DNA of 64,000 nucleotides from Escherichia coli (GTDB lineage Bacteria > Pseudomonadota > Gammaproteobacteria > Enterobacterales > Enterobacteriaceae): assembly GCF_001677475.2 (NCBI RefSeq), contig NZ_CP015229.1. One strand, written 5' to 3'. The number at the start of each line of letters is the position of its first letter. Position 1 is the first letter of the stretch. This document shows positions 30,874-56,262 of the stretch, in pieces. The translations under genes and the position numbers were made by a program. The notes under the pieces were generated by a model. It had not been told where the DNA came from and did no database searches. It saw only the letters and a list, made by a program, of their open reading frames with translations.

Positions 30874-32862
30874 CTACTTTTCTTCCAGGTAACTCTCTTC
30901 GAAGATTTCAATAGGGAGTGGGCGAGCAAAAAGGAAGCCCTGGGCAATACCAACGCCCGCTTTTGCCAGCCAGTCGCGTTGTGCTTCAGTCTCCACGCCT
31001 TCGGCAATCATTTGTAAGTTTAGGCTCTGCGCCAGCATGATAATTGCAGCAATCATGCTGCTATCTTCCGGCAAGCCTTCAACAAACATTTTGTCGATTT
31101 TTAGCACGTCGATTGGCAACGATTTCATATGCTGCAGCTGACGCAGCCCTGCGTAGCCCATGCCGAAATCATCCAGCGCCACCCGAACTCCGGCATTACG
31201 CAACGGACGGAGGATTGCCACCGCAGCATGAGGGTCGTCAATACGTCGGCTTTCTGTCACTTCCAGAATCAGTGTTCCCGGCTGAATGCGATAGCGGGTT
31301 AACAGTTCCAGCATATCCGCCACCATATTCGGGTGCATCAGTTGCAGCGCTGAGAGGTTTACCGACAAGGGCAGCATAATGCCGCGCTCTTGCCAGGCAG
31401 CCAGCAGTCGACAGGACTCTTCCAGCACCCAGTGACCAACGGTAACCATCAGCCCACAGCATTCAATGCGATCAATTAAGCCATCCGGCAGGTCCCAACT
31501 GCCATCCGGTTGCTGGATACGCAGTAACACTTCCGCACTGACCAGTTTACCGCTGGTCATCTCGACCTGTGGCTGTAACCAAATCGCAAACTGATGATTT
31601 TCCAGCGCATTAAGGATATCGCTCTCTTCCGTCAACCGCTTCTGGGCAGCTTCCATCTGCTGCGGATCAAAGAACTGAATCTGATTCTTGCCTTTATGGC
31701 GAGCGGTAAATGCCGCAGAAATAGCGCGACTGTAAAGCTGTTCGGCGGTGAGATCGCCGTAGAACATCGCCACGCCAATGCTACAGTGCGGACGGAGTTG
31801 AATACGTTCAATCGGCAGGCGCTCGCTCATGATGGTGAGCACTTGCTGACCCAAAGTGATTGCGTGCCACGGTTCCTGTACACCGTTGGCAATGACAGCA
31901 AAGTCATAACCGCTAATCTGCGCGAGGATCATACGTGGCGACAGTACCGATTTGAGTTTTTCCACCAGCGTCAGCAGCAGAATTTCTCGTTGCGCCTCTT
32001 TCAGCACGCCCGCAGTATCACGCAGGGTTTCACAGGTGATGATCATCAGCGCGGTGGTTTGTTTACGCGCGACAACCTGCTCCAGCATCTCCATCAGCAA
32101 GGCTTTGTTCGGCAAATCCGACACCGGGAAGCGCATCGCGTTTTCGTTCTGTTCTTCATAATGGCGCTGCAGCAATTGCTGGTTGAGGTTGTAACTGCGC
32201 ACCAGCATACCGATTTCATCGTCCTGATGCAGACGTGGTAATGCCAGTTGGTGACCAACAAGCTCCTGGGCAGGGATGGCGTTAAGTTCGCGAGCAATAT
32301 TGCGTAACGGATGCAAAATCAGGCGGTTAATGCACCAGCTAATCGCCACCGTCAATATTAACGACAAAAGTAAGTAAATGGTCACTAACGTTGAGAGGGT
32401 GCTCATCACGAACTTATACATGCGGAAGGAATCCGCCTGTAGCACCAGATAGGCAATTGGCTGCGGATTTGCCGGACGTTCCAGCGAGTAAACGCCCAGC
32501 GAGATTTGAACCGGTAGCTCAAACAGGCGAGTAACCATTACCGGCACCGGACGCTCTGGAATAAAACTTTTACGCAGCGCCTGGAACTGGTTAGGCAGCA
32601 CTACATCGGCACGGCTGACCACGCCTGCCGGTTTAATGCTGGCAAGAATAGCTTCCGCTTCGGGAATATCGCCTTTCAAAATAGCTGAAGATAAGGGTTC
32701 GCGGACAGAGCGAGCAATGCTTTCCAGTTGCGTAGCCGTGTTATAGCGATTCTGCTGGACCAGATGGAACAGCAAAACGGTGCAAAAAATAAAAACGAAC
32801 ACCAGGACAACGGCTGCCACCATTGCCATCTGCTTGATTGTTAACGAGCGACTTACGCGCAA
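30874..32862 (-). CDS. pdeK: Membrane-anchored c-di-GMP phosphodiesterase with HAMP, degenerate GGDEF and EAL domains, 662 aa
   Basis: N-terminal TM segments, then GGDEF-like and EAL regions ([11 protein letters not shown]..., [10 protein letters not shown]). Confidence 0.9.
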
Positions 32863-32943: not shown

Positions 32944-35900
32944 TTACCAGTCGGCGTAAGGTATCAGCGGCTGCGGCGGTAAATCCATGTCACCCTGCCA
33001 TCCGGCGGCGGAATAACGTACGTAGAGCAGGAAATGGCTGGGTGCGTAATCTTTCGCCTGCTGGATATCAATTGCCGTGCCGACAAACCAGTTGGAAGTA
33101 ACACGCCGTTCAAGTAATGCCCGCGCCGTGTAGCCGAAGCCCTGACTGCTGCCGCCATCGTTGGATTGCCGCGCAGCTTCTTCCTGCCAGTCGGTCGGGA
33201 TCAGATTCATCAGCGGATAACGCGGCATGGTTTTGGTGCGTGAATGCGACCACGAGCCAGACGCCCCCAGCTCCCACGACCAGTTTTCCGTGCGCTCCCG
33301 CCACATCACCGGTATGGCAAACGACAGGTATTCCTGCGGACTGTAGTAACCGCCCTGACCGAGTGAGTAGCCACTCAGATCTTTGTCGTAATGCCAGATC
33401 ATGTTGTTCAGGCCGATTGTGACGCGGCGATTGTTCTGGTTAATGACCTTATAGTAATAGCCCGTCATCCAGCGCACGCGCCAGTTATCTTCGACATTTT
33501 TACCGGTTAACTGGTCACCGCTAAGCGATGCCCAGACGCCGTTTGCTTCACCTTTATCGTAGCTCAGGCTTAGCCCCACGCCGTCGGCACGCACGCCACC
33601 CCATTTTTTCCCGGTATTGCTCGGGGAGTCTTTTTGCCCACCAAAGGCCAGCAAAGAACTGGAGATGGGCCGACGGTGGGCGTTAACGGTGTAACCCAGC
33701 GGCCCGATATCATCGCTGTAACTGATGCCGCCGACCACATCCACCACGTTGAAGCCCATCGGCGTGGTGCCGATATCCCAGCTCCAGACGTCATTTCGCC
33801 AGCCGACCGCCACGCTGGCACCGGAGTCCGACTGGCTGCGGTTGCCACTACAGTCCTGTAATGTACAGGTGCCCCAGTTGTCATCCCATTTGCCATCGGC
33901 ATTAGTGGAGAAACTGCCGACGTTCATATTGACGAAATCACTGCGAAAGAACATCCTCCCGTCAGAATACGGAGCATCCACCTGCAACATGGTAGTGTGC
34001 GCTTTCAGATCGGAGTAACCACCGGTGCCGCTCGAACCCCAGTAATCGTGCTCGAGGGTGACGTTAAGATCCTGCTGGCGATAGAGGTCCGCCGCATCGC
34101 TGCGCACGCCGCGTTTCAGCCAGTCATCTTTCTCGTCGTTACGGGTCAGTCGGGTAAAGGTGTCGTTATCCTGCGGACGCGTCGTAGTCACACCGGATGC
34201 GACCATGGCGTCTTTGTAGGTTTCCAGCGCCTGCTTTGGATCGCCCGCCTGCGCTTCAAACTTCGCACCGTCGCGCAGCACCATCGCGCTTTCCATCGAC
34301 GGTGGCTGAGATTTTGCCTGCGGGATCAACTTATTAAACGTCTGCTGCGCCGCTGCGGTATCGCCAAGCTGCGCCTGTGCCAGCGCCACGCGCCGCTGAG
34401 TGTTCAGCGACGCGTTATCGGTGGCAGGCAGTTTCGCCAGCTGGCTACGTGCTGCCGCTTTGTCACCGGCAGCAATATCCACTTCCGTCAGACCAAGAAT
34501 GGCATCGGCGTTAGTTGGCTCCCGCATCAGGACATTCTGATATGCAGCGCGAGCGGCGGTATAATCACGTCGTTGTTGCGCCCAGTCAGCCAGCGTGAGA
34601 TCAATACGCGTGGAAGGTGGTTGCTGGCGCAGCATCGCTTCCGCTTCAGCTTCTTTGCCGCTTTCTCGCAGGCGATTAGCGGTTTCCAGCACCTGATCGC
34701 TTTGCAGTCGATTAACCAGCTCCTGAATATTGCTGTTCCACTGCGCGCGCGGCAGGCTGTTGATATGCGCCAGAGCCGCTCTGTCCTGGTCATGACCAGA
34801 GAGGTACAGCCCGTAAGCGTAAACCTGCTCCGGGTCGTTCGGCTTCTGCTGCGCCAGATGGCGCATTAACGTATCGGCCTGGCTGCGTTGTCCGGCCTGC
34901 CAGAGATCCTGCGAAAGTCGGTAAGTAATCCATACACTGCCGGGGTCCAGCGCCAGTCGCTGGCGCTGAAGTGCTGCCGCCTGCGCCCATTTCCCCTGGT
35001 TTTCCAGTGCCTCTGCCTGCTGTGCCAGACGGTCGTTTTGCAGGCTGCGTTCGATATCATCAATGCTGCGCCGCTGGCTGGCAGAGAGCGAGGCGATAAA
35101 CGCTTCAGCTTTTTCTGGCGATTGCTGGCGGTATATATTCGCCAGCCCGCGCACGGCGTTAGTGTTGCCGCTGTCCATACGCAAGGTCTGCTGATAATAA
35201 CGTTCGGCGGCGGGATAATCTTTTCGTGCCATCGCCACATCGCCCAGCCCCAGCACTGCATAACTGTCGGTGTTATCGACATTACGTGCCTGCTGGAACA
35301 GGCGTTCTGCCCGGTCAGGATTATTGGCTTTCAGCGCAGCATCGCCCTGCTGGATCGCCAGCCAGTAGCGGTTTACTTTCAGGAGACTGTTCCATTTGTC
35401 GTTGTTGCTGCTGTGCGGGTCCAGTGCGAGGGCTTTTTCCAGATTCGCCACCGCATTAGCGCGATCGCCATTCTGGGAATACGCCTGCCCCAGCGCCCCC
35501 AGAGCCTCACTGTCTTTCGGGTTCGCCCGCACCGCCTGTTGTAGTTCGGGAATGGCTTTACCCACCATACCAGAGTCCACCGCCGCTAAACCTTGCGCAC
35601 GAGCGCGGAAAGCAGGGTCGGCCAGCTGTTTTTGCTGTTCTGCCAGTTGCGATTGTGCAGCCGCCACGCTATCGCCATCGCTAAAGATCGAAAGATATTT
35701 TTTCAGCGCCGACACACTGGCATCGCTGACGGGCATGTCTTTAATCTGCCCGTACCAGATTTTAGAGGCCCCCTCGCGCCCGGCGTTCGATTTCGCCATT
35801 TGTTCCAGGACGGCAAAGCCTTCGTCACGGCGATCGCTACTAAACAGCAATAGCGCCAGATTGTTTTGCAGGCCCGTGTTGCCCGGTGCATCCGCATTGA

Positions 35901-36417
35901 TGCGTTTTAACTGATTAATCGCTTCGCCACGGCGAGCCGGAATTTTCGCCACCGTACTCCAGTACTCGACAGCAATGTCACCTTCCGGCGGCGCACCGTT
36001 GAACAGTTTGTTGTAACTCGCCACTGCTTCTTCCGCATGACCGGTCGTCGCCTGCAATCTTGCCTGTTGCAGTGCCTGACGACCATCCGGCGTGGAAAGC
36101 AGCATCGTAGTCCGCGACGATTTATACGCATTTGAACTCGGCGCTAACTGCGACAGCCGATCGAGCTGTTTTTGCGCGCCATCAATATCGCCCTGACGTA
36201 ACAGAGAACGGAAACGGGCGGCAACGACGTCCGGGTTATTCGGATCAATAAGTTCCAGCCGATATAACGACTGTTGCACCAGATCTTCACGATGGGTCGC
36301 TTCGCCTAACCGAACTTGCTCCAGCAACTGTTGCTGAGCGGTTGGTGCTGCCTCGACCATCGGCATGACGGCCAGACCGAGGGAAAGCGTGAATATGTTT
36401 AGTGTGAATTTGCGCAT
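32944..36417 (-). CDS. bcsC: Cellulose synthase outer-membrane subunit BcsC (TPR repeats plus C-terminal beta-barrel), 1157 aa
   Basis: Long TPR-rich periplasmic region and C-terminal barrel; last gene of the bcsABZC operon. Confidence 0.95.
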
Positions 36418-37505
36418 TCCTGGCCCCAGTCAGGTAATAACTCACCTTTTGTCGAGAAGCGGAAACGGTGTTGATCCCAGCCTTGTCCAAACAGGGTCAG
36501 CACATAGTTGTAATAGGCATCGCTGCCGGGAAAGTTATCGGCCACGCGCTGGCGCTGAACGGCCTGCGCATCGCGGTTTTGTAAAAAGGGCAGCATGGCG
36601 GCAGAAAAACCGACCGGTCCTTTACCCTGCGCTTTCCCCGTAGCCACATCCACTTTTTCCGGCGGATAACCGTTTTTCTCGGTGAATGTCGCCATCGGTT
36701 TAAACCGGTTGAGCATCCGCGCTTTTTGCGGATCGCTGTCAGGCATCATGCCTACCCACATGTAAACGCGGATCGCGTCGTAGCTGCTGATCAATGTTTT
36801 TTCGGCTTTTAGCTGCCAGCCTTTGTCTTTCTCATAGCGCACCCAGTCTGGCGAAAAGCCTTTCGGGGCGGTTTCCAGCAATAAACGTTGATTGGTTTCG
36901 CGCAGCGTGGTCCACGGCGCGCCAAAGCGGGTGAAATACTGCGCCAGCGTCGGCGGCAGGTAGCTGGGGTTAAAACGCCAGCTGTTATCCTCTGCAAAAC
37001 CCACTTTGCCCGGTAACAACATGGAACCCAGCCCAGGCACCGTCACCACTTCCTCCCGCGCAATCCGTTTTAGCAACGCGCTGCCGATGTCGGTATAACG
37101 CTGCTCTTTCCACAAACGCCCCGCCTCCAGCAACGACCAGGCCATCCAGACATCACCATCGGAGGCCGAATTGCTGTCCAGCACTTCCCACTTACTGTTC
37201 TCTTTCTTGCCCCACAGCCAGGCGGGCAAACGTTCTTTTAAAGAACCCTGAGCGAGATTGTTCTGCGTCCAGTCGAGAATATTATCGAAAGCTGCACGGT
37301 CGTTAGCCGCCAGGGCAAAGAACATACCGTAACTTTGCCCTTCGGAGGTGGTGATTTTGCGCGCGTCGCTGGGGTCGATGACGCGCCCTTCCTGACTGAT
37401 GTAATCCTTTTTAAACTGCTCCCAGGCAGGCCAACTGCAGGCTGCCTGAACACTAAAGGCAGCCAACAGCAGCATCGTCACGAGTCCACTACGCAACACA
37501 TTCAT
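36399..37505 (-). CDS. bcsZ: Endo-1,4-beta-glucanase (glycoside hydrolase family 8), 368 aa
   Basis: Protein [23 protein letters not shown]...; ATG verified at 37503-37505; stop overlaps the bcsC start by 19 bp. Confidence 0.95.
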
Positions 37506-37511
37506 CTTCAA

Positions 37512-39851
37512 TTACTCGTTATCCGGGTTAAGACGACGACGACTAATAATTCGCAGCAGACGCCACAGTACCCAGGCCAGCAGCACGACGCTGATTGCCG
37601 CCAGCACCGCCAGCAGAATCGGATGGTTTGCCAGCGCATACCACAAGCGCTCGAACCACGGCAGATGACCTACGTAATAAACGTCGCCAACACGTAGGCT
37701 GTTGATACCGGACTCGCGGATCACCGCGACCGAACCGAACATGGTGGCGCGTTTGCCGCTATCGTTCACCGCATCGTTAAGCATTTCATAACCGCGCGGG
37801 CTATCTGCCAGCAGCGCAATCACGCTGCGCTGGTCGTTATACGGCGACTGGAAGCCAATCACCGCTGCCATCGCACCTGAAGAGGTCAGCGTTGACTGAG
37901 TTTCTGCCGCGCGATCGCTCTCGTCCGGTACAATGCCGGGGAACGGGGTCTGGCGCATCGGCGTTTTCACCCAGCTTTCGGTCGCCTGCACCAACAGGTC
38001 GATCTGCTTGTCGTCTTTCAGTTTGTCCGGGATACCACCGACGATCATGATGTCGGCATCTTTCCCCTGAATAGTGCTGCCATCATCGGTCACCGTCAGG
38101 TTAATCGCCGGGAAGCCCGTCTGTGCGCCGATAAAACCAACAGTATTCAGCAACGTTTCCATCTGTGCTTCGTTAGGCGTTTTCGGCATCACGGTGATGG
38201 TTTGCGACAGATCCGCCATCCGGCTGAACGGGAAGCCCGCGTTAGCAAAGGCGCGTAGATCCGGCATCGGGATGAAGTGGTAATACTTCGAGAAGTCGAT
38301 GGTGGAATCGTCACCAATCACCACATGATTCTGCACCGGCTGGAAGGTAATACAGTTATCCACCGAACCGCCCGGCATCGGGTTCATATACTCAAAGTCG
38401 AAGCGCAGCTGGTTGGTCGCGCCCAGTTTCAGCGCCGGAATAGAGACATCCGTTTTGCCATCCAGCAAACCTTGTAATACCGGAATCCGCAGCAGCAGGC
38501 GGTTCGCCTCCTGTTTGCTGCTCAGGTTGAAAGATTGCAGGAACTGGTTATTCAGGCTGATATCCATCCGCGAACTGTCTTTCACCGGCGGCATGGTGTA
38601 GCGGTAATTAATATCCATATCAATGCCGGTACTGCGCATCAGGTAGAGATCCGGCGGCAGGTTTAGCGAAACGTTAATCGCTGCTGGCTCAAGACCGCTG
38701 GATTGTAACTGTTCTTCATAGGTTTTCAGTTCACCAAAGGTGACCGGACGATCGGTACGTACCCAGTTCGGCGCATCGTAAGGCTTACGCGGTAGCAGCG
38801 GTTTCACTTCATTCACTACCACGCTTTCACCACGGAACAGAATGTTACCCTGAGCGATACCTTTCGCTGCCTGCAACAGGTCTTTGTCGTCACGACCAAA
38901 CACCACCAGCAGTTTGACGTAAGGATTCTGCGGATGGTTGATCATCTCAATCACCGGGGCTTTTACCGCCGGATGATCGCGCAGGAAGTCCGGCCGTTTG
39001 TCGTTGGTTGCAAAGACAATGGCATTGCGATCCGGCAGTTGGTTATAGAGCACCGGGAAGTTCTGCCCACGCCAGCCAGAACGCGAACCAAACCACGAGG
39101 CGACAATGGCAGAGGCTTGTTGCAGCCCAACATCCGGCGCACCCGCAAAGACCATCGGCAAGGTGTTAGTACGGTTATCGCGCGGGTCAAAGAATGGCAC
39201 CGGGAAGTGTGACAGGTCATTCTTTACATTCAGGGTCTGATAGGTCAGATCCAGTCCACTGCTCCGCCCAACATCCAGCCAAAGCGTGGTGCTGGCCGGG
39301 TTTTCGCACACGTCCTGATAATGGCCGACAAACTCCAGCCGCACACGGTTGAAGTCGGTAATAAACAGTGGGTTAATGGGCATTTGCGCCAGTGTTTTTT
39401 TACCCAACTGTTCTTTGGTCACTGGCAGCACGCCCATCAGTTCATCATTGAGATAAACCTTTAACTGCGACTGGACAGGCAGTAACGATGGCGATGGCGT
39501 GTATTCGAGGTTGAGCATCGCCTTCGTCACCACTTCATCGCTGCGCATACCAAACTCAATGCTGCCGTTCGGGTTAATGCCACGTAGCACCATGCTGCCC
39601 GGCGGCGGCGCAATTTGCGCAAAGGTCAGCTTCACATCACGCGAAGGACCGTTCTGCGCCACGACTGGCGCATCAGCGCCCTGCACGCCCGGCATCACTT
39701 GCCCCACCTGCGGATTTTGTTCCGTCTGGGCGGCTACAGCTGGCTCAGCATTGATCAGTGGTTGCGTTGCTGGCGTCGCCTGCGTCATGAAAGAGGGGAA
39801 CGCACTCATCCCCATAGCCACTGCACAAATCCAGAATAGTTTTCTTTTCAT
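37512..39851 (-). CDS. bcsB: Cellulose synthase periplasmic regulatory subunit BcsB, 779 aa
   Basis: Protein MKRKLFWICAVAMGMSAFPSFMTQA...; ATG verified at 39849-39851; C-terminal TM anchor. Confidence 0.95.
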   Translation of the reverse strand: MKRKLFWICAVAMGMSAFPSFMTQATPATQPLINAEPAVAAQTEQNPQVGQVMPGVQGADAPVVAQNGPSRDVKLTFAQIAPPPGSMVLRGINPNGSIEFGMRSDEVVTKAMLNLEYTPSPSLLPVQSQLKVYLNDELMGVLPVTKEQLGKKTLAQMPINPLFITDFNRVRLEFVGHYQDVCENPASTTLWLDVGRSSGLDLTYQTLNVKNDLSHFPVPFFDPRDNRTNTLPMVFAGAPDVGLQQASAIVASWFGSRSGWRGQNFPVLYNQLPDRNAIVFATNDKRPDFLRDHPAVKAPVIEMINHPQNPYVKLLVVFGRDDKDLLQAAKGIAQGNILFRGESVVVNEVKPLLPRKPYDAPNWVRTDRPVTFGELKTYEEQLQSSGLEPAAINVSLNLPPDLYLMRSTGIDMDINYRYTMPPVKDSSRMDISLNNQFLQSFNLSSKQEANRLLLRIPVLQGLLDGKTDVSIPALKLGATNQLRFDFEYMNPMPGGSVDNCITFQPVQNHVVIGDDSTIDFSKYYHFIPMPDLRAFANAGFPFSRMADLSQTITVMPKTPNEAQMETLLNTVGFIGAQTGFPAINLTVTDDGSTIQGKDADIMIVGGIPDKLKDDKQIDLLVQATESWVKTPMRQTPFPGIVPDESDRAAETQSTLTSSGAMAAVIGFQSPYNDQRSVIALLADSPRGYEMLNDAVNDSGKRATMFGSVAVIRESGINSLRVGDVYYVGHLPWFERLWYALANHPILLAVLAAISVVLLAWVLWRLLRIISRRRLNPDNE

Positions 39852-39861: not shown

Positions 39862-42480
39862 TCATTGTTGAGCCAGAGCCTGATCCGATGGTTGTGCCGT
39901 TTCGCTCCGCTCCGGGCGGCGCGGAATAAACGATACAACCCAGGAAACCAGAGAAGTCAGCACACGGAATATGCCCTTCACCGAAGAAGGCGCAAACTCC
40001 GCCAGATGGCGGTAGCCACGGAAGCCGAGCTTCAGAATATCCAGCAGACTTTCCAGCGGCTTATCTTCCGGGTAGCTGTCCTGCCAGAGCGCCCATGTAT
40101 CCGCACGGGCAAACGTACACTGCACAAAATCGATATGTTGCTGAGTGGTGAGCGGCATTAATTTCAGCCCAACTTCATTACCCATCACGCGCGCCACCTG
40201 GGTCGGGAAGACATATTCCTGCTGACCGCGTTTAAGCAACAGATTCACTTTCTGCCCTTCCAGAATCTGTGCCTGACCGTTGATCTTGATCCCCAAACCA
40301 CCGTCGGAGAAATCCTGAACGGTACACGAGAAGAGATGACCATCTTCGCGGGCAATTGCCGCGGGCATCGTCATCTCCACGCGGTGCGAACGACGTACCT
40401 GTTTGCTTTCTACCGATACCGCAACTGCGCCGCCAAGAACAATCAGGTTGTAGAATACCCACACCATACTGACGACCACGGTGAGCATCTCGGTTGGCGG
40501 ACCATAGAAGTAGCGCCAGATGCCTACCGCAACGCCCACCAGGTTGAGCAGAACAAGGAAGATGTAGGGCCGCGAGATCACCCAGTCGACGTACTCTTCT
40601 TCCACCAGTCCACCTTTGGCGGTGACGTTAAATTTGCCTTTGTGCGGGTTAATCAGCGCCACCAGCGTCGGTGGTGCGATATACCACGCCAGCACCGTTT
40701 CGTAGATTTCACTCCAGAAAGAGTGGCGATATTTGCCCTGGATCTTGGAGTTGGTCAGGCTAGCATGGATCATATGCGGCAGCACGAACAGGGCAATCAT
40801 CAACGCTGGCGCATAGATGATGTAGGCATGAAGCAGCAGGAACGCCAGCGGCGCAGTCAGGAAGATCAGTCGTGGAATGCCCGACAAGAAGTGGAACATG
40901 GCGTTGACGTAACATAGCCGCTGAGCAAACTTCAGCCCTTTACCGGTGAGCGGGTTATCGAGACGAAAGATTTGCACCATCCCGCGCGCCCAGCGAATAC
41001 GCTGACCAATATGCGCCGACAGACTTTCGGTCGCCAGCCCCGCCGCCTGCGGAATACGCATATATGCAGAGGTGTAGCCACGACGGTGCAGGCGCAAAGA
41101 GGTATGCGCATCTTCAGTCACAGTTTCGACAGCAATACCGCCAATTTCATCCAGCGGCTTACGGCGAATCACCGCACAGGAACCGCAGAAGAAAGTGGCG
41201 TCCCACATATCGTTGCCATCCTGCACCAGACCATAGAACAGCGTGCCTTCGTTCGGTGTTTTACGAAAACGCCCCAGGTTGCGTTCAAACGGGTCCGGTG
41301 AGAAGAAGTGGTGCGGCGTCTGCATCATCGCCAGCTGTTTTTCTTTCAGGAACCAGCCCATGGTCATTTGCAGGAACGATCGCGTTGGTACGTGGTCGCA
41401 GTCGAAAATCGACACGAACTCGCCTTTGGCATATTTCAGCGCATTGTTGATGTTGCCCGCTTTCGCATGTTCATGAGTGGTGCGGGCGATATATTTCACC
41501 CCCACGTTTTGCGCAAACTGGCGAAACTCTTCCCTGCCGCCGTCATCAAGGATCCAGATGTTCAGCTTGTCTTTCGGCCAGTCGATACCCAGCGAAGCGT
41601 AAATGGTATTTTTCACCACGTTGAGATCTTCGTTGTAAGTCGGGACAAAGATATCCACCGACGGCCACAGCGACATATCTTTCGGCAATGGCACCGGCTG
41701 ACGATTCAGCGGCCATACGACCTGGAAGTAGCCGAGCACCAGCACAATCCACGCGTACGTTTCAGCGAAGAGCAGAATAAGCCCGCACACCAGGCTGACC
41801 GGATCGTCCCAGTTCAACGTAGAGGTGTAGCGCCACCAGATATAACGGCAAGAAACGGTCAGCGACAGCACAATCAGCATCAACGCCGAGAAGCGCCCCG
41901 GCATCCGCCGTACGATCAGCGCTACACCCCACAGCAGCATCAGGAAGATAAACTGCGCCAGCGGGTTAAATGGCTGGGTGACGCAGATTAATGCCAGAAT
42001 CAGCGAGAAGGTGACGATGATACCGAGGATCAACCGCCGCGCCCCGGCACTCAAATGACCGAGTTCTTTTTTCTCATCAAGATGCTGTGTTTTATGGCTA
42101 ACGCGCTCAGGCAGCTCGTTCATCCATTGATGGTAACGTCCACGAATATTTTGCAGACCTGAAAATGCCCGCCTGCGCGGTTTCGGCGTTTCTTTGCGCG
42201 ATGCACCGATCAGTAACCAGCATGTTTGAATGAGATAACGGACCGGGTCCAGCGGACGCGGACGCGAGGCGTTGATATGCGGATACAGGTTTTTATGTTC
42301 TGCGCGAATACGCTGCCAGCGCGGGTGCTCCAGCGGAATAAAAATCCAGGCCAGGATCATCCAGAAACAGCCGAGCGTCGCGCTGAAAGCCGACGCACCG
42401 TGGCGACGATAATCGCGATAACGCCCGATAAGCCGCGCGTTGACCGGCGGGATAAGCAACCACCGGGTCAGGATACTCAT
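39862..42480 (-). CDS. bcsA: Cellulose synthase catalytic subunit BcsA (GT-2, PilZ domain), 872 aa
   Basis: Protein MSILTRWLLIPPVNARLIGRYRDY...; glycosyltransferase and QRIRW motifs; ATG verified at 42478-42480, overlapping the bcsQ stop. Confidence 0.95.
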   Translation of the reverse strand: MSILTRWLLIPPVNARLIGRYRDYRRHGASAFSATLGCFWMILAWIFIPLEHPRWQRIRAEHKNLYPHINASRPRPLDPVRYLIQTCWLLIGASRKETPKPRRRAFSGLQNIRGRYHQWMNELPERVSHKTQHLDEKKELGHLSAGARRLILGIIVTFSLILALICVTQPFNPLAQFIFLMLLWGVALIVRRMPGRFSALMLIVLSLTVSCRYIWWRYTSTLNWDDPVSLVCGLILLFAETYAWIVLVLGYFQVVWPLNRQPVPLPKDMSLWPSVDIFVPTYNEDLNVVKNTIYASLGIDWPKDKLNIWILDDGGREEFRQFAQNVGVKYIARTTHEHAKAGNINNALKYAKGEFVSIFDCDHVPTRSFLQMTMGWFLKEKQLAMMQTPHHFFSPDPFERNLGRFRKTPNEGTLFYGLVQDGNDMWDATFFCGSCAVIRRKPLDEIGGIAVETVTEDAHTSLRLHRRGYTSAYMRIPQAAGLATESLSAHIGQRIRWARGMVQIFRLDNPLTGKGLKFAQRLCYVNAMFHFLSGIPRLIFLTAPLAFLLLHAYIIYAPALMIALFVLPHMIHASLTNSKIQGKYRHSFWSEIYETVLAWYIAPPTLVALINPHKGKFNVTAKGGLVEEEYVDWVISRPYIFLVLLNLVGVAVGIWRYFYGPPTEMLTVVVSMVWVFYNLIVLGGAVAVSVESKQVRRSHRVEMTMPAAIAREDGHLFSCTVQDFSDGGLGIKINGQAQILEGQKVNLLLKRGQQEYVFPTQVARVMGNEVGLKLMPLTTQQHIDFVQCTFARADTWALWQDSYPEDKPLESLLDILKLGFRGYRHLAEFAPSSVKGIFRVLTSLVSWVVSFIPRRPERSETAQPSDQALAQQ

Positions 42481-43229
42481 GATGCACTCCCGACTGGCGT
42501 TTTCAGCCCGGAATAGTTCAACAGGCACCAGTTAGCCAGCGTCAGTATCTCTTCCGCCGCCAGCGCATCACTGCGATATTCACCGACTGGTTGCTTAGCC
42601 GCCAGGCATTCAGCCATCGCTTCATCACGATGAATGAGCATCGGCAGTAATCGGCGCTGGCTTTGCAACCAAAGCTGGTAAATATCGTCCTGAACCTGAC
42701 TGCCGATACGGAAGTCATTAATCAAAATATGCGCGCCATCCGGCAGCGCCTGCTGATGCAGCCGGATATGGCAGTTGGCATCCACATTGACGATTGCCAG
42801 CGAGTGATCGCACAAACTCAGCAGCTGGTGGGTTATCTGCGAGGCATCACGCGGTAAGTCGATTAAAATCCACTGGTAACGCCCGCTGGCTTTTAGTTGC
42901 TGTAAGCCGGAGCAAATATCGCTCAGCCGGGTTTGCCAGTGCTGTGGATTTTCTTGTTCTTCAATGGATAACTGACCAAAAGGCAGCAAATCGAGCTGCG
43001 AGGTATAGCGCAACCCAGCGTCACGCCAGTCCTGGCCATCCAGCATAGCTCTGGCCCAGCCCTGACGGTGGGTAAAATCAACGTTAAATGACAGGCGCAA
43101 CAAGTTGTCCGGGCAGGCATCGACCACCAGGACATTTTCTCCCAACATTTGTAATGACCAGGCTAATGCGGCGGTGATGGTTGTTGTCCCCACGCCTCCC
43201 CGCACCCCCTGCAATCCCAGTACGGCCAT
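42477..43229 (-). CDS. bcsQ: Cellulose biosynthesis ParA/MinD-family ATPase BcsQ, 250 aa, intact
   Basis: Protein MAVLGLQGVRGGVGTTTITAALAWSLQMLG...; codon 6 is TTG (Leu), so the reading frame is open from the ATG. Confidence 0.9.
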   Translation of the reverse strand: MAVLGLQGVRGGVGTTTITAALAWSLQMLGENVLVVDACPDNLLRLSFNVDFTHRQGWARAMLDGQDWRDAGLRYTSQLDLLPFGQLSIEEQENPQHWQTRLSDICSGLQQLKASGRYQWILIDLPRDASQITHQLLSLCDHSLAIVNVDANCHIRLHQQALPDGAHILINDFRIGSQVQDDIYQLWLQSQRRLLPMLIHRDEAMAECLAAKQPVGEYRSDALAAEEILTLANWCLLNYSGLKTPVGSAS

Positions 43230-43240: not shown

Positions 43241-43429
43241 CTACTTTTGTTGCGCAAACTCTGCCAGCAACGGCCAGCGTTTTAATGCCGCGGCCAACTG
43301 TTCGCGTTGGGAAATATCGGCATAATCAATATCAGGCAGTGAAAATGCCTGCTTTAACGCCAAAATATCATTCTGGAAGATATAGCCTATCGCGGGATCA
43401 GGCAGAGTATCTGGTTCATTGTTATTCAT
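43241..43429 (-). CDS. bcsR: Small cellulose biosynthesis protein BcsR, 62 aa
   Basis: Protein MNNNEPDTLPDPAIGYIFQNDILALKQAFSLPDIDYADISQREQLAAALKRWPLLAEFAQQK; ATG verified at 43427-43429. Confidence 0.85.
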   Translation of the reverse strand: MNNNEPDTLPDPAIGYIFQNDILALKQAFSLPDIDYADISQREQLAAALKRWPLLAEFAQQK

Positions 43430-43700
43430 TTGCTTGATCCCTATGAAATAACCGTACCGTTCATGAGACAATTCTAACCGTGAGCATTTCGCCGGTTTAT
43501 TGTTTACGGCGAGACGGGAATTTGCTCACTTTTTGACTTTCCGTTACGCAACAAAAAAAGTTAAAAACGAAAAGACTAAAATCACACGTCTTGTGACCTG
43601 CTAAATTGATTCACATGCTAAATCTGATAAGTTTTAATTTCAATGGTAGGTTTATTTCTTAGCTTTCGCTAGTAAACTGATAATCAGACAAAATGATGAC

Positions 43701-45272
43701 ATGAGGGACATTGTGGACCCTGTATTCTCTATCGGTATCTCATCATTATGGGATGAGCTGCGACATATGCCAGCAGGCGGCGTCTGGTGGTTTAACGTCG
43801 ATCGCCATGAAGATGCTATCAGTCTGGCGAATCAAACAATTGCATCCCAGGCTGAAACCGCACACGTCGCGGTCATTAGCATGGACAGCGATCCGGCGAA
43901 AATCTTTCAATTAGATGATTCTCAAGGGCCGGAAAAAATAAAATTATTTTCAATGCTAAATCATGAAAAAGGTCTATACTATTTGGCCCGTGATTTGCAG
44001 TGTTCTATTGAACCCCATAATTACCTTTTTATTCTTGTTTGCGCAAATAACGCATGGCAAAACATTCCTGCCGAGCGGCTTCGCTCATGGTTGGATAAAA
44101 TGAATAAATGGAGCAGGTTAAACCATTGTTCGCTTTTGGTAATTAATCCCGGAAATAATAACGATAAACAATTTTCATTGTTGCTTGAGGAATACCGTTC
44201 ACTTTTTGGTCTTGCCAGTTTGCGTTTTCAGGGTGACCAACATTTGCTGGATATTGCCTTCTGGTGCAACGAAAAAGGGGTTAGCGCCCGTCAGCAGCTT
44301 AGCGTTCAGCAACAAAATGGTATCTGGACATTAGTTCAAAGCGAAGAGGCGGAGATCCAACCACGCAGCGACGAAAAACGCATTCTGAGTAATGTTGCTG
44401 TACTGGAAGGTGCGCCGCCGCTATCGGAACACTGGCAACTGTTCAACAATAACGAAGTTCTGTTCAATGAAGCCCGTACCGCTCAGGCGGCGACGGTGGT
44501 CTTTTCTTTACAGCAAAATGCGCAAATCGAGCCACTGGCCCGCAGCATTCATACTCTGCGTCGCCAGCGCGGTAGTGCGATGAAAATCCTCGTACGGGAA
44601 AATACCGCAAGCCTGCGCGCCACCGATGAACGTTTGTTATTGGCCTGCGGTGCAAATATGGTTATCCCGTGGAATGCGCCACTCTCCCGTTGTCTGACGA
44701 TGATCGAAAGCGTGCAAGGGCAGAAGTTTAGTCGCTATGTGCCGGAAGATATCACTACCTTGCTGTCAATGACCCAGCCGCTCAAACTGCGTGGTTTCCA
44801 GAAGTGGGATGTGTTCTGTAATGCCGTCAACAACATGATGAATAACCCTCTATTACCTGCCCACGGTAAAGGCGTTCTGGTTGCCCTACGTCCGGTACCG
44901 GGTATCCGCGTTGAACAAGCCCTGACGCTGTGTCGCCCTAACCGTACCGGCGATATCATGACCATTGGCGGTAATCGGCTGGTGCTGTTTCTCTCATTCT
45001 GTCGGATTAACGATCTGGATACCGCGTTGAATCATATTTTCCCATTGCCTACTGGCGACATTTTCTCAAACCGTATGGTCTGGTTTGAAGATGATCAAAT
45101 CAGTGCCGAGCTGGTGCAGATGCGCCTGCTTGCCCCAGAACAATGGGGCATGCCGCTGCCTTTAACGCAAAATTCTAAACCGGTCATTAATGCCGAGCAC
45201 GATGGTCGCCACTGGCGACGAATACCAGAACCCATGCGACTGTTAGATGATGCTGTGGAGCGCTCATCATGA
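43701..45272 (+). CDS. bcsE: c-di-GMP-binding cellulose biosynthesis protein BcsE, 523 aa
   Basis: 523-aa protein divergent from bcsR; first gene of bcsEFG. Confidence 0.95.
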
Positions 45273-45460
45273 TGACCATCAGCGATATCATTGAAATTAT
45301 TGTCGTTTGCGCACTGATATTTTTCCCGCTGGGCTATCTGGCGCGGCACTCTTTGCGACGCATTCGCGACACCTTACGTTTGTTCTTTGCTAAACCTCGT
45401 TATGTTAAACCGGCCGGGACGTTACGCCGCACGGAAAAAGCCAGGGCAACCAAAAAATGA
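45269..45460 (+). CDS. bcsF: Small membrane protein BcsF, 63 aa
   Basis: Single-TM 63-aa protein; start overlaps the bcsE stop and stop overlaps the bcsG start. Confidence 0.9.
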
Positions 45461-47136
45461 CTCAATTTACGCAAAATACCGCCATGCCTTCTTCCCTCTG
45501 GCAATACTGGCGCGGCCTTTCCGGCTGGAACTTCTATTTTCTGGTTAAGTTCGGCCTGTTGTGGGCAGGATATCTTAACTTCCATCCGCTCCTCAATCTG
45601 GTGTTTGCCGCGTTTCTGCTGATGCCCATTCCGCGCTACAGCCTGCATCGCTTACGCCACTGGATTGCCCTGCCGATCGGCTTTGCTTTGTTCTGGCATG
45701 ACACCTGGTTGCCTGGCCCGGAAAGCATAATGAGCCAGGGTTCGCAGGTGGCGGGGTTCAGTACCGATTATTTAATCGACCTTGTCACACGCTTTATTAA
45801 CTGGCAGATGATTGGGGCCATTTTTGTTTTATTAGTGGCCTGGTTATTCCTGTCACAATGGATTCGCATTACCGTTTTTGTGGTTGCCATTCTGCTATGG
45901 CTGAACGTACTTACCCTGGCGGGACCAAGTTTCTCCTTGTGGCCAGCCGGTCAACCGACGACCACTGTAACAACGACGGGTGGTAACGCAGCGGCAACCG
46001 TTGCGGCGACGGGTGGCGCACCGGTAGTGGGTGATATGCCCGCACAAACTGCACCGCCAACAACGGCGAACCTTAACGCCTGGCTGAATAATTTCTATAA
46101 CGCGGAGGCGAAACGTAAATCGACCTTCCCGTCTTCGCTGCCCGCTGATGCTCAGCCATTTGAACTACTGGTGATTAATATCTGTTCGCTTTCCTGGTCG
46201 GATATTGAAGCCGCCGGGTTGATGTCGCATCCGCTGTGGTCACATTTCGATATTGAGTTCAAGAACTTTAACTCCGCCACCTCCTACAGTGGCCCGGCGG
46301 CGATCCGTTTACTGCGCGCCAGCTGCGGGCAGACTTCGCATACTAATCTGTATCAACCGGCAAATAATGACTGCTATCTGTTTGATAACCTGTCGAAACT
46401 GGGCTTTACCCAGCACCTGATGATGGGACATAACGGCCAGTTCGGCGGTTTTTTGAAAGAAGTTCGCGAAAATGGCGGCATGCAGAGCGAATTGATGGAT
46501 CAAACAAATCTGCCGGTTATTTTGCTGGGCTTTGATGGTTCGCCGGTTTATGACGATACCGCCGTGCTTAACCGCTGGCTGGACGTTACCGAAAAAGATA
46601 AAAACAGCCGTAGTGCCACGTTCTATAACACGCTTCCACTGCATGACGGCAACCATTATCCGGGCGTCAGCAAAACAGCGGATTACAAAGCGCGGGCGCA
46701 GAAATTCTTTGATGAACTGGACGCCTTCTTTACTGAACTGGAGAAATCGGGTCGTAAAGTGATGGTGGTCGTGGTGCCGGAACACGGTGGCGCGCTGAAG
46801 GGCGACAGAATGCAGGTATCTGGCCTACGTGATATCCCTAGCCCGTCTATCACAGACGTCCCCGTTGGGGTGAAATTCTTCGGCATGAAGGCACCACATC
46901 AGGGGGCACCGATTGTCATCGACCAACCGAGCAGCTTCCTGGCTATCTCCGATCTAGTGGTTCGCGTTCTTGATGGCAAGATTTTCTCCGAAGACAATGT
47001 TGACTGGAAAAAACTCACCAGTGGGTTACCACAAACAGCACCGGTCTCCGAGAACTCAAATGCAGTAGTTATTCAATACCAGGATAAACCGTACGTTCGC
47101 CTGAACGGCGGCGACTGGGTGCCTTACCCGCAATAA
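45457..47136 (+). CDS. bcsG: Cellulose phosphoethanolamine transferase BcsG, 559 aa
   Basis: N-terminal TM segments and C-terminal alkaline-phosphatase-like domain; last gene of bcsEFG. Confidence 0.95.
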
Positions 47137-47222: not shown

Positions 47223-47330
47223 TTACTTCCGCTTGTTCAGCCAGTTCACGATCATACTGGCAAGAATGCCAGCAATGACCGGAGCCGCTAAATCATGCCA
47301 GAAGGCCATGCCCAGCTCTGCGAGCGTCAT
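47223..47330 (-). CDS. ldrD: Ldr-family type I toxin peptide, 35 aa (copy 1)
   Basis: Translates to MTLAELGMAFWHDLAAPVIAGILASMIVNWLNKRK, a hydrophobic 35-aa Ldr toxin; too short for the ORF track. Confidence 0.85.
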   Translation of the reverse strand: MTLAELGMAFWHDLAAPVIAGILASMIVNWLNKRK

Positions 47331-47379
47331 ATAGCCGCCTGTGTTGTAATGACAACGTTTCGCGGCTATTCTTGAGTGG

Positions 47380-47445
47380 TCTAGGTTCAAGATTAGCCCC
47401 CGTTATGTTGTCAGGTGCATACCTGCAACGTGCGGGGGTTTTCTC
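47380..47445 (+). ncRNA. rdlD: Rdl-type antisense RNA (antitoxin) of ldr copy 1; 5' end approximate
   Basis: + strand hairpin CCCCCG...TGCGGGGG followed by TTTTCT (47396-47444); sigma70-like TTGTAA-17bp-TATTCT upstream; lies antisense to the ldr leader. Confidence 0.55.
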
Positions 47446-47705: not shown

Positions 47706-47813
47706 TTACTTCCGCTTGTTCAGCCAGTTCACGATCATACTGGCAAGAATGCCAGCAATGACCGGAGCCGCTAAATCATGCCAGAAGGCCATGCCCAGTT
47801 CTGCGAGCGTCAT
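47706..47813 (-). CDS. Ldr-family type I toxin peptide, 35 aa (copy 2)
   Basis: Same 35-aa peptide as copy 1, with one synonymous difference (GAA vs GAG at codon 5); it is the C-terminal part of ORF-track entry 47706..47981. Confidence 0.85.
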   Translation of the reverse strand: MTLAELGMAFWHDLAAPVIAGILASMIVNWLNKRK

Positions 47814-47861: not shown

Positions 47862-47927
47862 GTTCAGGTTCAAGAATGGCCCCCGTGATGTTGTCAGGTG
47901 CATACCTGCAACGTGCGGGGGTTTTCT
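47862..47927 (+). ncRNA. Rdl-type antisense RNA (antitoxin) of ldr copy 2; 5' end approximate
   Basis: Second copy of the hairpin-plus-U-run terminator (47879-47927) in the same relative position to ldr copy 2. Confidence 0.55.
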
Positions 47928-49589: not shown

Positions 49590-50594
49590 TTAACGCTGCG
49601 GATTTTCATCCTGATCAACAGCAAAACAAGCTACCAGTTGACCGCCGTAGTCTTTTAGCTGCGGCTGCAACTGGGTGCAGGGGCCGAAGCGCCGACGACA
49701 GCGGGCGTTAAACGCGCAGCCCGGCGGTGGATTGAGCGGGCTTGGCAGTTCACCGGTGAGCTTGATGCGCTCGCGGCGATCGTCCGGGTTCAGGCGCGGC
49801 GTCGCGGAGAGTAGCGCCTGAGTGTACGGATGACGCGGGTTATTGAAGATTTGGTCCTTCGTTCCCTTCTCCACGCAGCGGCCCAAGTACATCACCATCA
49901 CTTCATCGGCAATGTGCTCAACCACTGACAGGTCGTGCGAGATAAAGACATAAGACAGCCCCAACTCCTGCTGCAAATCCATCATCAGATTCAGCACCTG
50001 CGCACGCACTGAAACGTCCAGCGCGGAAACCGGTTCATCGGCAATCACCACATCCGGGTCGAGCATCAGACCTCGGGCAATGGCGATACGCTGACGCTGA
50101 CCGCCGGAGAACATATGCGGATAGCGGTCGTAATGCTCGGTTTTCAGGCCGACTTTCGCCATCATCGACAGGGCTTTTTCCCGACGCTGTTCTTTGCTTA
50201 AGCTGGTGTTGATCAGCAGCGGCTCTTCGAGAATTTGCCCAACTTTTTTACGCGGATTCAGCGAACCGTAAGGGTTCTGGAAGACAATCTGGATTTTCTG
50301 CCGACGCAGCTTCTGCGCCTGCGGATCGTGCTTAAGCAGATCCTGCCCCTGGTAATACAGCTCGCCGCCGGTGGGCGTTTCAATCATCGTCAGCAACCGA
50401 CCGAGGGTCGATTTACCGCAGCCAGATTCGCCCACTACTGCCAGCGTTTTGCCACGTTCAAGGTTAAACGAAACACCATCCAGCGCCTTCACCAGACGTT
50501 CCGGTGCGAACATACCTTTCTTCACCGGATAATGTTTTTTCAGGTCGATAGCCTGCAACAGCGGTTGTTGCGAGGTGGCCTCTTGCGTACTCAT
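49590..50594 (-). CDS. dppF: Dipeptide ABC transporter ATP-binding protein DppF, 334 aa
   Basis: Walker A (GESGCGKST), ABC signature (FSGGQRQR); last gene of the dpp operon. Confidence 0.95.
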
Positions 50595-51574
50595 AGTGTG
50601 GGCCTCCCGGCATCATCAAGTGGGTAATGGCATTTGGACTGACGCCCGTCAGCGAGCATATTCAGCGCCGGTTCTTCAGCACGGCATTTGTCAGTGGCGT
50701 AGGGGCAGCGCGGGTTAAGCAGGCAGCCGTTCGGGCGGTCATACTTGCCAGGAACAACACCTGGCAACGACGCCAGACGTTCTTTGTCCTGAGCAAATTC
50801 CGGCAGCGCACGCAGCAATGCCTGAGTATACGGGTGACGCGGCGCATGGAAGATGGCGTGCGCATCGCCCGTTTCCACCACCTGACCTGCATACATCACG
50901 ATGATTTTATGTGCCGCTTCCGCCACCAGCGCCAGGTCATGAGTGATCAACACCAGCGCCATGTTCTCTTTCTGCTGTAGCTCCAGCAGCAGTTCGATAA
51001 TTTGCGCCTGAATGGTCACGTCCAGCGCAGTGGTTGGTTCATCGGCAATCAGCAGCTTTGGCCGACAGGCAATCGCCATGGCGATCATCACGCGCTGGCT
51101 CATGCCGCCGGAAAGCTGATGCGGGTAAACATCCAAACGCGAAGCCGGATCGGGAATACCGACCAGATTCAGCAGGTCAATCGCTCGCTGACGGCGGGTA
51201 CTTTTGTTGCCGCCCTGATGCACCTTAATCGCTTCCATGATCTGGAAACCCACGGTGTAGCACGGGTTAAGGCTGGTCATCGGGTCCTGGAAGATCATCG
51301 CCACTTCGGCACCCACCAGGTTGCGGCGCTCTTTTTCTGAGATACGCTGTAAATCCTGACCGTTAAACTCCAGCTTTTCCGCCATTACGCGGCCCGGATA
51401 ATCAATCAGCCCCATAATCGCCAGCGAACTGACCGATTTACCAGAGCCGGACTCACCCACAATCCCGACCACTTCGCCCTGTTTTACGCTGTAGCTGATG
51501 CGGTCTACGGCGCGGAACGGTGCGCTTTCGTCACCGAAATGCACCGATAATTTATCTACATTTAATAACGCCAT
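50591..51574 (-). CDS. dppD: Dipeptide ABC transporter ATP-binding protein DppD, 327 aa
   Basis: Walker A (GESGSGKS), ABC signature (LSGGMSQR); stop overlaps the dppF start by 4 bp. Confidence 0.95.
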
Positions 51575-51584
51575 CTCGAACCTC

Positions 51585-52487
51585 TTACTGCTTCAGTTTG
51601 GGATCGAGCGCGTCACGCAGACCGTCACCCATCAGGTTAAATGCCAGCACCGTCAGCAGGATCGCCAGACCCGGGAAGGTCACGACCCACCAGGCGCTTT
51701 GCGCGAACTGCAACACATCGGAGAGCATGGTGCCCCACTCCGGCGTTGGCGGCTGCGCTCCCATGCCGAGGAAGCCAAGGGCGGCCATATCGAGAATGGC
51801 GTTAGAGAAACCGAGCGACGCCTGAACAATCAGCGGCGCAAGGCAGTTCGGGAAGATGTTTATAAACATCTGGCGCATCGCCCCGGCACCCGCCACGCGA
51901 GACGCGGTAACGTAATCGCGATTCACCTCCACCAGCACGGCGGCGCGGGTTAAGCGCACATAGTGCGGCAAGGCAACGAAGGTTAGCGCCAGCGCGGCGT
52001 TACCAATCGACGGGCCGAAAATCGCCACCAGCACCAGTGCCAACAGCAGACTTGGCAGCGCCAGCATGATATCGACCACGCGCATGATGATGTTATCGAC
52101 CAGACCGCCAAAGTAACCGGCGATCAGGCCGAGAATAACGCCCATAATCAGCGATAACACAACTACCAGACAGCCAACCAGCAGCGACAAGCGCGCGCCG
52201 TACATCAGCCGCGACAGCACATCACGGCCTACGTCATCGGTGCCCAGCAAGTGCGCCATGCTGCCGCCTTCCTGCCAGGCTGGCGGGGCGAGCAGTGCAT
52301 CGCGGAACTGTTCCGCCGGGTTATAGGGTGCAATCCAGTTGGCAAAGATCGCGATAAACAGCACGATGACGACGTAAACCAGCCCGACAACCGCGCCTTT
52401 GTTGCGTTTAAAATAGTGCCAGAACTCCTGTAACGGGGTCATCGGCACCGGTGCGCTAATCACTTTATTTTCAGTAACCTGTGACAT
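51585..52487 (-). CDS. dppC: Dipeptide ABC transporter permease DppC, 300 aa
   Basis: Binding-protein-dependent transport permease sequence, 300 aa. Confidence 0.95.
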
Positions 52488-52496
52488 GATGTCCCC

Positions 52497-53516: not shown

Positions 53517-53666
53517 AACCCGGATTCTCTGTAGTGACCCGCAGCCTGGAACTGCGTGTCTGTATTGCTCACAAATCAATTCCCGCCCGTGCCGGACAGG
53601 GAATGAAGTATTGCTGCCGGATGGCGCTGCACGCAGAGATGCAGCGCCACCGGGTATGGCTTTTAA

Positions 53667-55854: not shown

Positions 55855-55929
55855 GTGTTCACGCCGCATCCGACAATGGGCCGGCACATTTGCCTGATGC
55901 GACGCTGGCGCGTCTTATCAGGCCTAGGT
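55855..55929. repeat. REP extragenic palindromes
   Basis: GTGTTCACGCCGCATCCGACA and GCCTGATGCGACGCTGGCGCGTCTTATCAGGCC units seen directly. Confidence 0.75.

Positions 55930-56262
<333 letters not shown>

Follow-up and report, generated by a model that had tools for sequence, protein, structure and literature searches.

Does the bcsQ gene in the 64-kb stretch of Escherichia coli DNA analysed here (hereafter the window) escape the lesion known from laboratory strains, and what would an open frame say about the capacity of its host to make cellulose? In K-12, the bcsQ change 17T>A converts TTG to TAG and makes the strain cellulose-negative, and reverting TAG to TTG yielded the cellulose-proficient AR3110 (PMC5944007, PMC7397504, PMC5014196). 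A preliminary description of the window had reported TTG at codon 6, an uninterrupted bcsQ frame of 250 codons that overlaps bcsA by 4 bp (ATGA) and full-length copies of all nine bcs genes (bcsR, Q, A, B, Z, C, E, F, G), and had taken the locus to be competent for phosphoethanolamine (pEtN)-cellulose production.

The bcsQ reading frame and codon 6

Direct reading of the sequence confirmed TTG (Leu) as codon 6, the plus strand having CAA at 43212..43214, and the ORF list with its translation returned a single, uninterrupted 250-codon frame from ATG to TGA, encoding 250 aa with the N-terminus MAVLGLQGVRGGVGTTT. By our own arithmetic, 250 open codons would arise by chance with a probability of ~(61/64)^250 = 6e-6. 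The gene ends in GCA TCA TGA and the bcsA ATG occupies 42480..42478; the described 4-bp overlap is likewise present, with ATGA at 42477..42480 common to the bcsQ stop and the bcsA start, at the same coordinates as in K-12.

Over its full length, bcsQ shares 98.4% nucleotide identity with K-12 bcsQ. Alignment of the 5′ end to MG1655 (NC_000913.3) sets TTG against TAG: gene position 17 (window position 43213) is T here and A in MG1655, where bcsQ is annotated as a pseudogene. Together with the three papers cited above, this bears out the TAG that the preliminary description had ascribed to cellulose-negative K-12. The remaining 11 nucleotide differences from MG1655 are all synonymous, and at the protein level the two BcsQ sequences differ by *6L alone.

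Such a protein is also the product expected from TAG-to-TTG repair of K-12, and the sequence might in principle come from a K-12 strain that had been repaired or engineered, instead of representing a natural allele. Indeed, AR3110, a repaired derivative of K-12 W3110 that produces pEtN-cellulose, has BcsQ, BcsA and BcsF proteins identical to those of the window. This origin is refuted, to the point of being practically impossible, by the 11 further synonymous bcsQ differences, by a 45-kb collinear block with only 98.36% identity to MG1655, and by flanks with heme-uptake genes and lpfABCDE, both missing from K-12 at these sites; in addition, no complete genome exceeds 98.2% identity over the 25 kb compared.

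Codon 6 of bcsQ was tallied with allele-specific 55-mers across 5,426 complete E. coli genomes: 4,898 carry TTG and 349 carry TAG. The TAG genomes were viewed through two listings (best matches and a spread), giving ~115 distinct records of the 349; all of those listed are of K-12 size and are either labelled as laboratory derivatives or consistent with being such, and none places the codon-6 TAG outside the K-12 lineage. A BcsQ nonsense mutation has been mentioned for ST167/617/744 (PMC10881479), which presumably affects a different codon. The open bcsQ frame is thus the species norm and the K-12 TAG a laboratory-lineage oddity. Where the preliminary description had presented the frame as open unlike the K-12 allele, the difference itself stands, but the framing is inverted, since the open frame (4,898 of 5,426 complete genomes) is the wild type. 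A 250-aa BcsQ whose sixth codon is TTG (Leu), the window's order of operon genes and its bcsQ/bcsA ATGA overlap are also found in natural isolates (e.g. strain 1094) and AR3110. The K-12 pseudogene (b3534; MG1655, W3110 and derivatives) matches the window gene in length and position, but carries TAG at codon 6 where the window has TTG, and its hosts are cellulose-negative (PMC5944007).

Family membership of BcsQ

The window protein matches NF007460, the NCBIfam BcsQ equivalog, from residue 1 to 250 over positions 1–250 of the 250-position model, and scores 297.7 bits against TIGR03371 (cut-off 157.85) and 383.2 bits against Pfam PF06564. It is identical at 248 of 250 residues to the crystallised E. 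coli protein in PDB entry 6ybu, chain A ('Bacterial cellulose secretion regulator BcsQ'); the window has D172 and A249 where this 1094-type BcsQ has N and K. The deviant Walker A motif (G8VRGGVGTTT) and residues T15, C39, N152, R156 and N171, which contact ATP or have been functionally tested (PMC8892547), are all in place. The gene context is that expected of bcsQ, with bcsR upstream and bcsA immediately downstream in the same minus-strand operon. Given this identity to the characterised protein, BcsQ would be expected to bind or hydrolyse ATP and to be needed for cellulose secretion in vivo.

A complete type II bcs locus

Table 1. Features of the bcs region, with an NCBIfam equivalog match (score in bits, cut-off in brackets) and protein differences from K-12.
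Feature	Position	Strand	Length	Description	NCBIfam match	Differences from K-12
pdeK (hmsP)	30874..32862	-	662 aa	c-di-GMP phosphodiesterase adjoining bcsC; intact		2 substitutions
bcsC	32944..36417	-	1157 aa	outer-membrane TPR/porin subunit	NF008520, 2199.8 (858)	8 substitutions
bcsZ	36399..37505	-	368 aa	periplasmic GH8 endoglucanase	NF008305, 595.9 (299)	
bcsB	37512..39851	-	779 aa	periplasmic subunit	NF008325, 1386 (922)	8 substitutions, mostly common to other E. coli alleles
bcsA	39862..42480	-	872 aa	catalytic cellulose synthase with PilZ domain	NF008558, 1794 (992)	none
bcsQ	42477..43229	-	250 aa	SIMIBI-class ATPase of the cellulose secretion complex (ORF, NF007460, PF06564, 6ybu)	NF007460, 542.9 (399)	*6L
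bcsR (yhjR)	43241..43429	-	62 aa	first gene of the bcsRQABZC operon	NF040717, 75.8 (46)	V23L
bcsR–bcsE intergenic region	43430..43700	.	271 bp	divergent (promoter) region		
bcsE	43701..45272	+	523 aa	c-di-GMP-binding regulator	NF011619, 1188.8 (929)	T96A, D104E, S491N
bcsF	45269..45460	+	63 aa	membrane anchor	TIGR03493, 116.4 (56)	none
bcsG	45457..47136	+	559 aa	phosphoethanolamine transferase	TIGR03368, 818.6 (410)	L58I, E489D, T511S

All nine bcs genes align to their K-12 counterparts end to end and without gaps, with equal lengths, unchanged start and stop codons and frames free of internal stops, and all nine pass the NCBIfam equivalog cut-offs over their full length (Table 1), as they do the Pfam cut-offs; the claim of nine full-length genes therefore holds. 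Neither indels nor altered starts or stops nor IS insertions were found in these genes or in the 29 other window genes with K-12 homologs. bcsA differs from its K-12 counterpart by 49 synonymous and no non-synonymous changes, and bcsF is identical at the nucleotide level. Over the nine genes, dN/dS relative to K-12 amounts to 0.039 (0.036 for bcsC), revealing strong purifying selection.

Residues expected of working subunits were recovered as well. BcsZ retains E55 and D243, and its F63 is the common allele, the S of K-12 being the unusual one. In BcsG, all eight active-site residues are present, namely the zinc ligands C243, S278, E442 and H443, the cysteines of the C290–C306 disulfide, and Y277 and R458 (PMC8892547). 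BcsA contains the D360xD, T455ED, Q493RIRW, R696xxxR and D723xSxxG motifs. The latter two, in the PilZ domain, read R696RSHR (RxxxR) and D723FSDGG (D/NxSxxG) and are c-di-GMP receptor motifs, and BcsE carries the RxxD I-site motifs R306ATD and R415TGD. We take these BcsA and BcsE motifs to be functional c-di-GMP sites, on the strength of a review (PMC8892547) and of the residue numbering.

All nine exact protein sequences already occur in public databases, at very different frequencies: that of BcsR is found on at least 1,000 public contigs and that of BcsC on only five, among them a draft E. coli contig. Several variants, moreover, were absent from the other alleles sampled (BcsC A285V, K316N, N520H and T631M; BcsE D104E and S491N; BcsG T511S), and one of these rarer missense changes might inactivate a subunit, leaving the locus non-functional though all frames are open. 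We regard this as highly improbable: most of the substitutions are conservative, none of them hits a position on the published list of functionally required residues (PMC8892547), the scores of all nine proteins lie well clear of the equivalog cut-offs, and bcsC evolves under the low dN/dS given above. Since the frames are open, the nine genes full length and the checked catalytic and ligand-binding residues kept, the locus is, as judged from its sequence, genetically intact, and cellulose production itself can at most be predicted.

This arrangement corresponds to the type II (E. coli-like) Bcs system, which is defined by the BcsE and BcsG subunits (PMC8892547) and makes pEtN-cellulose (Thongsomboon et al. 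2018, as cited in PMC8892547). The window shares with it bcsRQABZC divergent from bcsEFG, the presence of bcsE and bcsG, a full-length bcsA/B/Z/C core, and the intact BcsG active site and BcsA PilZ motifs; at the level of the genes, no difference was detected in the window. In E. coli the bcs locus is often inactivated, examples being a BcsA frameshift at residue 186 and BcsQ Q178* in ST95, a +C insertion in bcsE of O104:H4 and a bcsE nonsense mutation in ATCC 8739 (PMC10881479, PMC4287979, PMC5944007). The window, in contrast, has none of these lesions, and all nine frames are open.

Regulation and the prospects for cellulose production

The intergenic region between bcsR and bcsE is identical to that of the natural isolate WP4-S18-ESBL-07 and is separated from the K-12 sequence by three SNPs and a single 1-bp indel. 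A promoter-region change in the window was consequently rejected, as these differences are specific to K-12 among the three sequences compared.

An intact locus might nevertheless be phenotypically silent, with no or only conditional cellulose, owing to factors outside the window (rpoS, the csgD promoter, mlrA, dgcC or high PDE activity), in which case an open bcsQ frame would not predict the phenotype. DgcC under RpoS/MlrA/CsgD control is specifically required for cellulose production (PMC7397504), and CsgD, DgcC, MlrA and RpoS are all encoded outside the 64 kb. BL21 and H10407, which have no bcs nonsense mutation, give no detectable calcofluor signal (PMC5944007). Within the window, the PDE genes pdeK and pdeH are both intact, the product of pdeK draining c-di-GMP locally at the cellulose synthase (PMC7397504). 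On the other hand, no sign of such a defect was seen anywhere in the window, and purifying selection this strong across the nine genes implies a system in use in this lineage. Overall, we consider a silent locus somewhat unlikely. Of the earlier statement that the locus should be competent for pEtN-cellulose, the genetic integrity is upheld; production also requires regulators encoded outside the window.

A working model

The window very probably carries an ordinary wild-type bcsQ in a complete type II locus (bcsRQABZC divergent from bcsEFG), the K-12 TAG being a derived laboratory-lineage lesion that is missing here. Published studies of the E. coli system describe BcsQ as a SIMIBI ATPase that assembles into BcsR2Q2; this complex binds BcsE and packs against the BcsA PilZ domain. 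According to the same literature, cellulose secretion depends strictly on BcsQ, and BcsG then places phosphoethanolamine on the glucan. The ATGA shared by the bcsQ stop and the bcsA start might let ribosomes that finish bcsQ couple into bcsA. With such coupling, a stop at codon 6 would not only abolish BcsQ but also lower expression of the downstream genes, and the cited work on the K-12 defect allows for either BcsQ loss itself or a polar effect. The coupling and polarity step is our inference. With TTG at codon 6, neither effect would arise, and the locus could make pEtN-cellulose whenever DgcC, under CsgD/RpoS control, supplies c-di-GMP.

Source lineage and significance

Whether bcsC, the dpp genes or a 25-kb block is compared, none of the 5,426 complete RefSeq genomes exceeds ~98.2% identity, and this lack of a close relative may simply mirror the make-up of the comparison collection. 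In a 60-mer scan of the GTDB species representatives, the only hit was an Escherichia contig of 92.9% identity, too distant to be the source. The flanks of the window hold heme-uptake genes and an undivided lpfABCDE operon. We think it quite improbable, if conceivable, that the source strain represents an under-sampled E. coli lineage that keeps an intact biofilm and colonisation set (nine bcs genes, lpfABCDE and heme uptake), in which the rare variants of BcsC, BcsE and BcsG could tune how much cellulose is made; no observation here calls for this reading.

The findings of an open bcsQ and a complete bcs locus are correct but ordinary. Their value is that of strain annotation only and does not extend the biology. 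K-12 is a poor reference for a 'normal' bcsQ, the reference itself being the mutant. Loss of bcs function is frequent and has been associated with increased invasiveness of ExPEC, Shigella and Salmonella (PMC10881479), so that recording an intact locus is useful for typing. For the isolate itself, an intact nine-gene bcs locus suggests that it could form a cellulose-plus-curli (rdar) matrix.

The bcsQ reading frame

On the minus strand, bcsQ forms a single ORF of 250 codons from ATG to TGA (ORF list and translation); by our own arithmetic, the chance of such a frame remaining open is ~6e-6. Its 5′ end reads ATG GCC GTA CTG GGA TTG CAG (MAVLGLQ), with TTG as codon 6 (CAA on the plus strand at 43212–43214). 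At the 3′ end (GCA TCA TGA), the bcsA ATG begins one base ahead of the TGA, and the ATGA at 42477–42480 is common to both coding sequences. These direct reads bear out the preliminary description of a TTG at codon 6, a frame uninterrupted over 250 codons and a 4-bp overlap with bcsA.

The ORF aligns to K-12 bcsQ without gaps at 98.4% identity. In MG1655, the gene (b3534) carries a pseudogene annotation, and codon-by-codon comparison of the codon 6 region (ATGGCCGTACTGGGATAGCAG in K-12, ATGGCCGTACTGGGATTGCAG in the window) located the SNP to gene position 17 (window 43213). At the amino-acid level this is the sole difference, the 11 further nucleotide differences all being synonymous. The same SNP, given as "TTG/TAG (17 T > A)", renders K-12 derivatives cellulose-negative, and restoring codon 6 of W3110 to TTG yielded the cellulose-proficient strain AR3110 (PMC5944007, PMC7397504, PMC5014196). 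Both the premature K-12 stop and its phenotype had thus been described correctly. Compared to the crystallised E. coli BcsQ (PDB entry 6ybu), 248 of 250 residues are identical.

Codon 6 alleles across E. coli

To quantify both alleles, we searched 5,426 complete E. coli genomes with allele-specific 55-mers carrying the SNP at position 28, such that any 28-base megablast seed must cross it. The TTG query matched 4,898 genomes and the TAG query 349, together 5,247, the same as the number of genomes in which 80% or more of bcsQ is present. The TAG set was viewed through two listings, one of the best-ranked records and one spread evenly over the set, which together covered ~115 distinct records of the 349. 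All of these genomes measured 4.46–4.79 Mb and most were named K-12 derivatives (MG1655, W3110-type, DH5alpha, DH1, BW25113, J53, as well as HB101, C600, XL1-Blue, MC4100 and TG1); the remainder were transconjugants, evolved laboratory lines or bore names without lineage information. Given these counts and the K-12 or laboratory type of the listed TAG records, the usual state in E. coli is the open frame, with the stop codon confined to the laboratory lineage. The result is therefore a known reference-strain quirk found again, not a peculiarity of this genome.

Integrity of the nine bcs genes

All nine bcs genes match K-12 end to end, without gaps, at equal lengths and with unchanged start and stop codons, and alignment to K-12 revealed no internal stop in any of them, in agreement with their earlier description as full length.

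Features of the window (substitutions relative to K-12)
Feature	Position	Strand	Remarks
bcsC	32944–36417	-	1157 aa; 8 substitutions
bcsZ	36399–37505	-	368 aa; 3 substitutions
bcsB	37512–39851	-	779 aa; 8 substitutions
bcsA	39862–42480	-	872 aa; 0 substitutions, 49 synonymous nt differences
bcsQ	42477–43229	-	250 aa; *6L only
bcsR	43241–43429	-	62 aa; 1 substitution
bcsE	43701–45272	+	523 aa; 3 substitutions
bcsF	45269–45460	+	63 aa; nucleotide-identical
bcsG	45457–47136	+	559 aa; 3 substitutions
Ldr/RdlD modules	47223–47330, 47379–47444, 47706–47813, 47862–47927	-, +, -, +	compared with MG1655 and WP4-S18-ESBL-07
lpfABCDE	58334–63830	-	complete long polar fimbriae operon; usher LpfC undivided, 861 aa
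Heme-uptake genes	24–2455	+	adjoin yhiD, left end of acid-fitness island
tRNA-Pro (proK) and adjoining RtT element	56018–56262	-	Rfam; between dppA and eptB
naRNA4 (REP-derived) match	55844–55924	+	Rfam; between dppA and eptB
GadY	12114–12227		Rfam; acid-fitness island
ES205	6263–6334		Rfam; acid-fitness island

Several apparent substitutions are K-12 peculiarities: all other sampled alleles share the window residue at position 63 of BcsZ and at positions 165, 184 and 224 of BcsB. A few of the window's substitutions, in contrast, are rare among the alleles sampled. Across the nine genes, dN/dS relative to K-12 was 0.039 (Nei–Gojobori), which indicates strong purifying selection. All nine proteins passed the NCBIfam equivalog cut-offs over their full length as well as the Pfam cut-offs, and the exact sequence of each is already public, on anything from 5 contigs (BcsC; one of 5,498,453 bp, ANO91480.1) to at least 1,000.

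Residues listed as functional in a review (PMC8892547) were present throughout: in BcsQ, the deviant Walker A motif G8VRGGVGTTT with T15, C39, N152, R156 and N171; in BcsG, the Zn ligands C243, S278, E442 and H443, the disulfide pair C290/C306, Y277 and R458; in BcsE, R306ATD and R415TGD; in BcsA, D360xD, T455ED, Q493RIRW and the PilZ motifs R696xxxR and D723xSxxG; and in BcsZ, E55 and D243.

The 271-bp divergent promoter region between bcsR and bcsE is identical in a natural isolate. At 43430, directly 5′ of the bcsR ATG (43429), the window and the natural isolate WP4-S18-ESBL-07 read AAA where K-12 reads AAAA, and three K-12 SNPs in this intergenic region are absent from both.

Genomic surroundings and relatedness

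Between yhiD and eptB, the window and MG1655 run collinearly for 45 kb at 98.36% identity, and 29 of 29 other K-12 genes checked were intact. On the left flank, heme-uptake genes, including a BtuC/FecCD-type permease, a heme ABC ATPase (NF010068, 395 bits) and a 207-aa ORF without an NCBIfam match, occupy the position of slp-dctR in K-12. On the right flank, lpfABCDE lies just past eptB, where collinearity ends and K-12 has yhjX instead; LpfA, B, C and E pass their NCBIfam cut-offs, whereas LpfD scores 310 against 412. Between bcsG and yhjV, two tandem Ldr toxin/RdlD antisense-RNA type I toxin–antitoxin modules are found, as in WP4-S18-ESBL-07, compared to one (ldrD/rdlD) in MG1655. The proK, RtT, naRNA4, GadY and ES205 matches are all as expected for E. 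coli.

The dppF–dppB segment (49590–53516) shares 95.1–97.2% nucleotide identity with K-12 vs. ~98–99% in the remaining collinear block, with 0–3 residue differences in the Dpp proteins. Between dppB and dppA (53654–53657), ~153 bp of K-12 sequence, probably a REP/BIME-type repeat, are missing; an 86%-identical copy of this element lies between yhjE and yhjG (23362–23491).

Over 25 kb (30001–55000), the closest of 5,426 complete RefSeq E. coli genomes was at most ~98.2% identical, and single loci fared similarly (best bcsC, 98.2%; dppBCDF, 98.0%). The complete-genome collection therefore lacks the source lineage or represents it poorly.

Of 138 PLSDB records in all, ~129 plasmid records, nearly all from E. 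coli (with examples of 94–185 kb), have a full-length bcsC ~97.6% identical to the window's; one 4.8-Mb 'plasmid' in PLSDB is evidently a chromosome. In the plasmid inspected (L007, NZ_CP142679.1, 37752–59215; IncHI1B), bcsC sits in an IS1-flanked chromosomal segment with bcsB and a 5′-truncated bcsA, and bcsQ and bcsR are not annotated.

Proposed competence for cellulose production

BcsQ is a SIMIBI ATPase that forms BcsR2Q2 heterotetramers, partners BcsE (itself membrane-tethered by BcsF) and buttresses the BcsA PilZ domain; BcsR and BcsQ are each essential for secretion, and BcsG adds phosphoethanolamine to the nascent glucan (PMC8892547). The window shows no break in this chain. The ATGA overlap may couple translation of bcsA to that of bcsQ, in which case a stop at codon 6 would both abolish BcsQ and leave ~740 nt of mRNA untranslated upstream of bcsA. 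BcsQ loss and polarity are both possible causes of the K-12 phenotype (PMC5944007).

Cellulose synthesis further depends on c-di-GMP made by DgcC under the RpoS/MlrA/CsgD cascade (PMC7397504). None of these four genes lies within the window, which does contain intact phosphodiesterase genes pdeK and pdeH. Moreover, BL21 and H10407 carry bcs genes without nonsense mutation, yet their calcofluor signal is undetectable (PMC5944007). The proposed competence for phosphoethanolamine-cellulose is thus supported by the nine intact frames at the level of genotype, with production depending further on regulators encoded outside the window.

The open frame confirmed here for bcsQ, a well-studied gene, is its wild-type state, as was already known. 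Loss-of-function mutations in bcs are present in some strains of 74 of 76 common STs and, for 14 STs, in >80% of strains (PMC10881479). Because such mutations are widespread, an intact bcs locus deserves recording for a strain, though it is still the common state.
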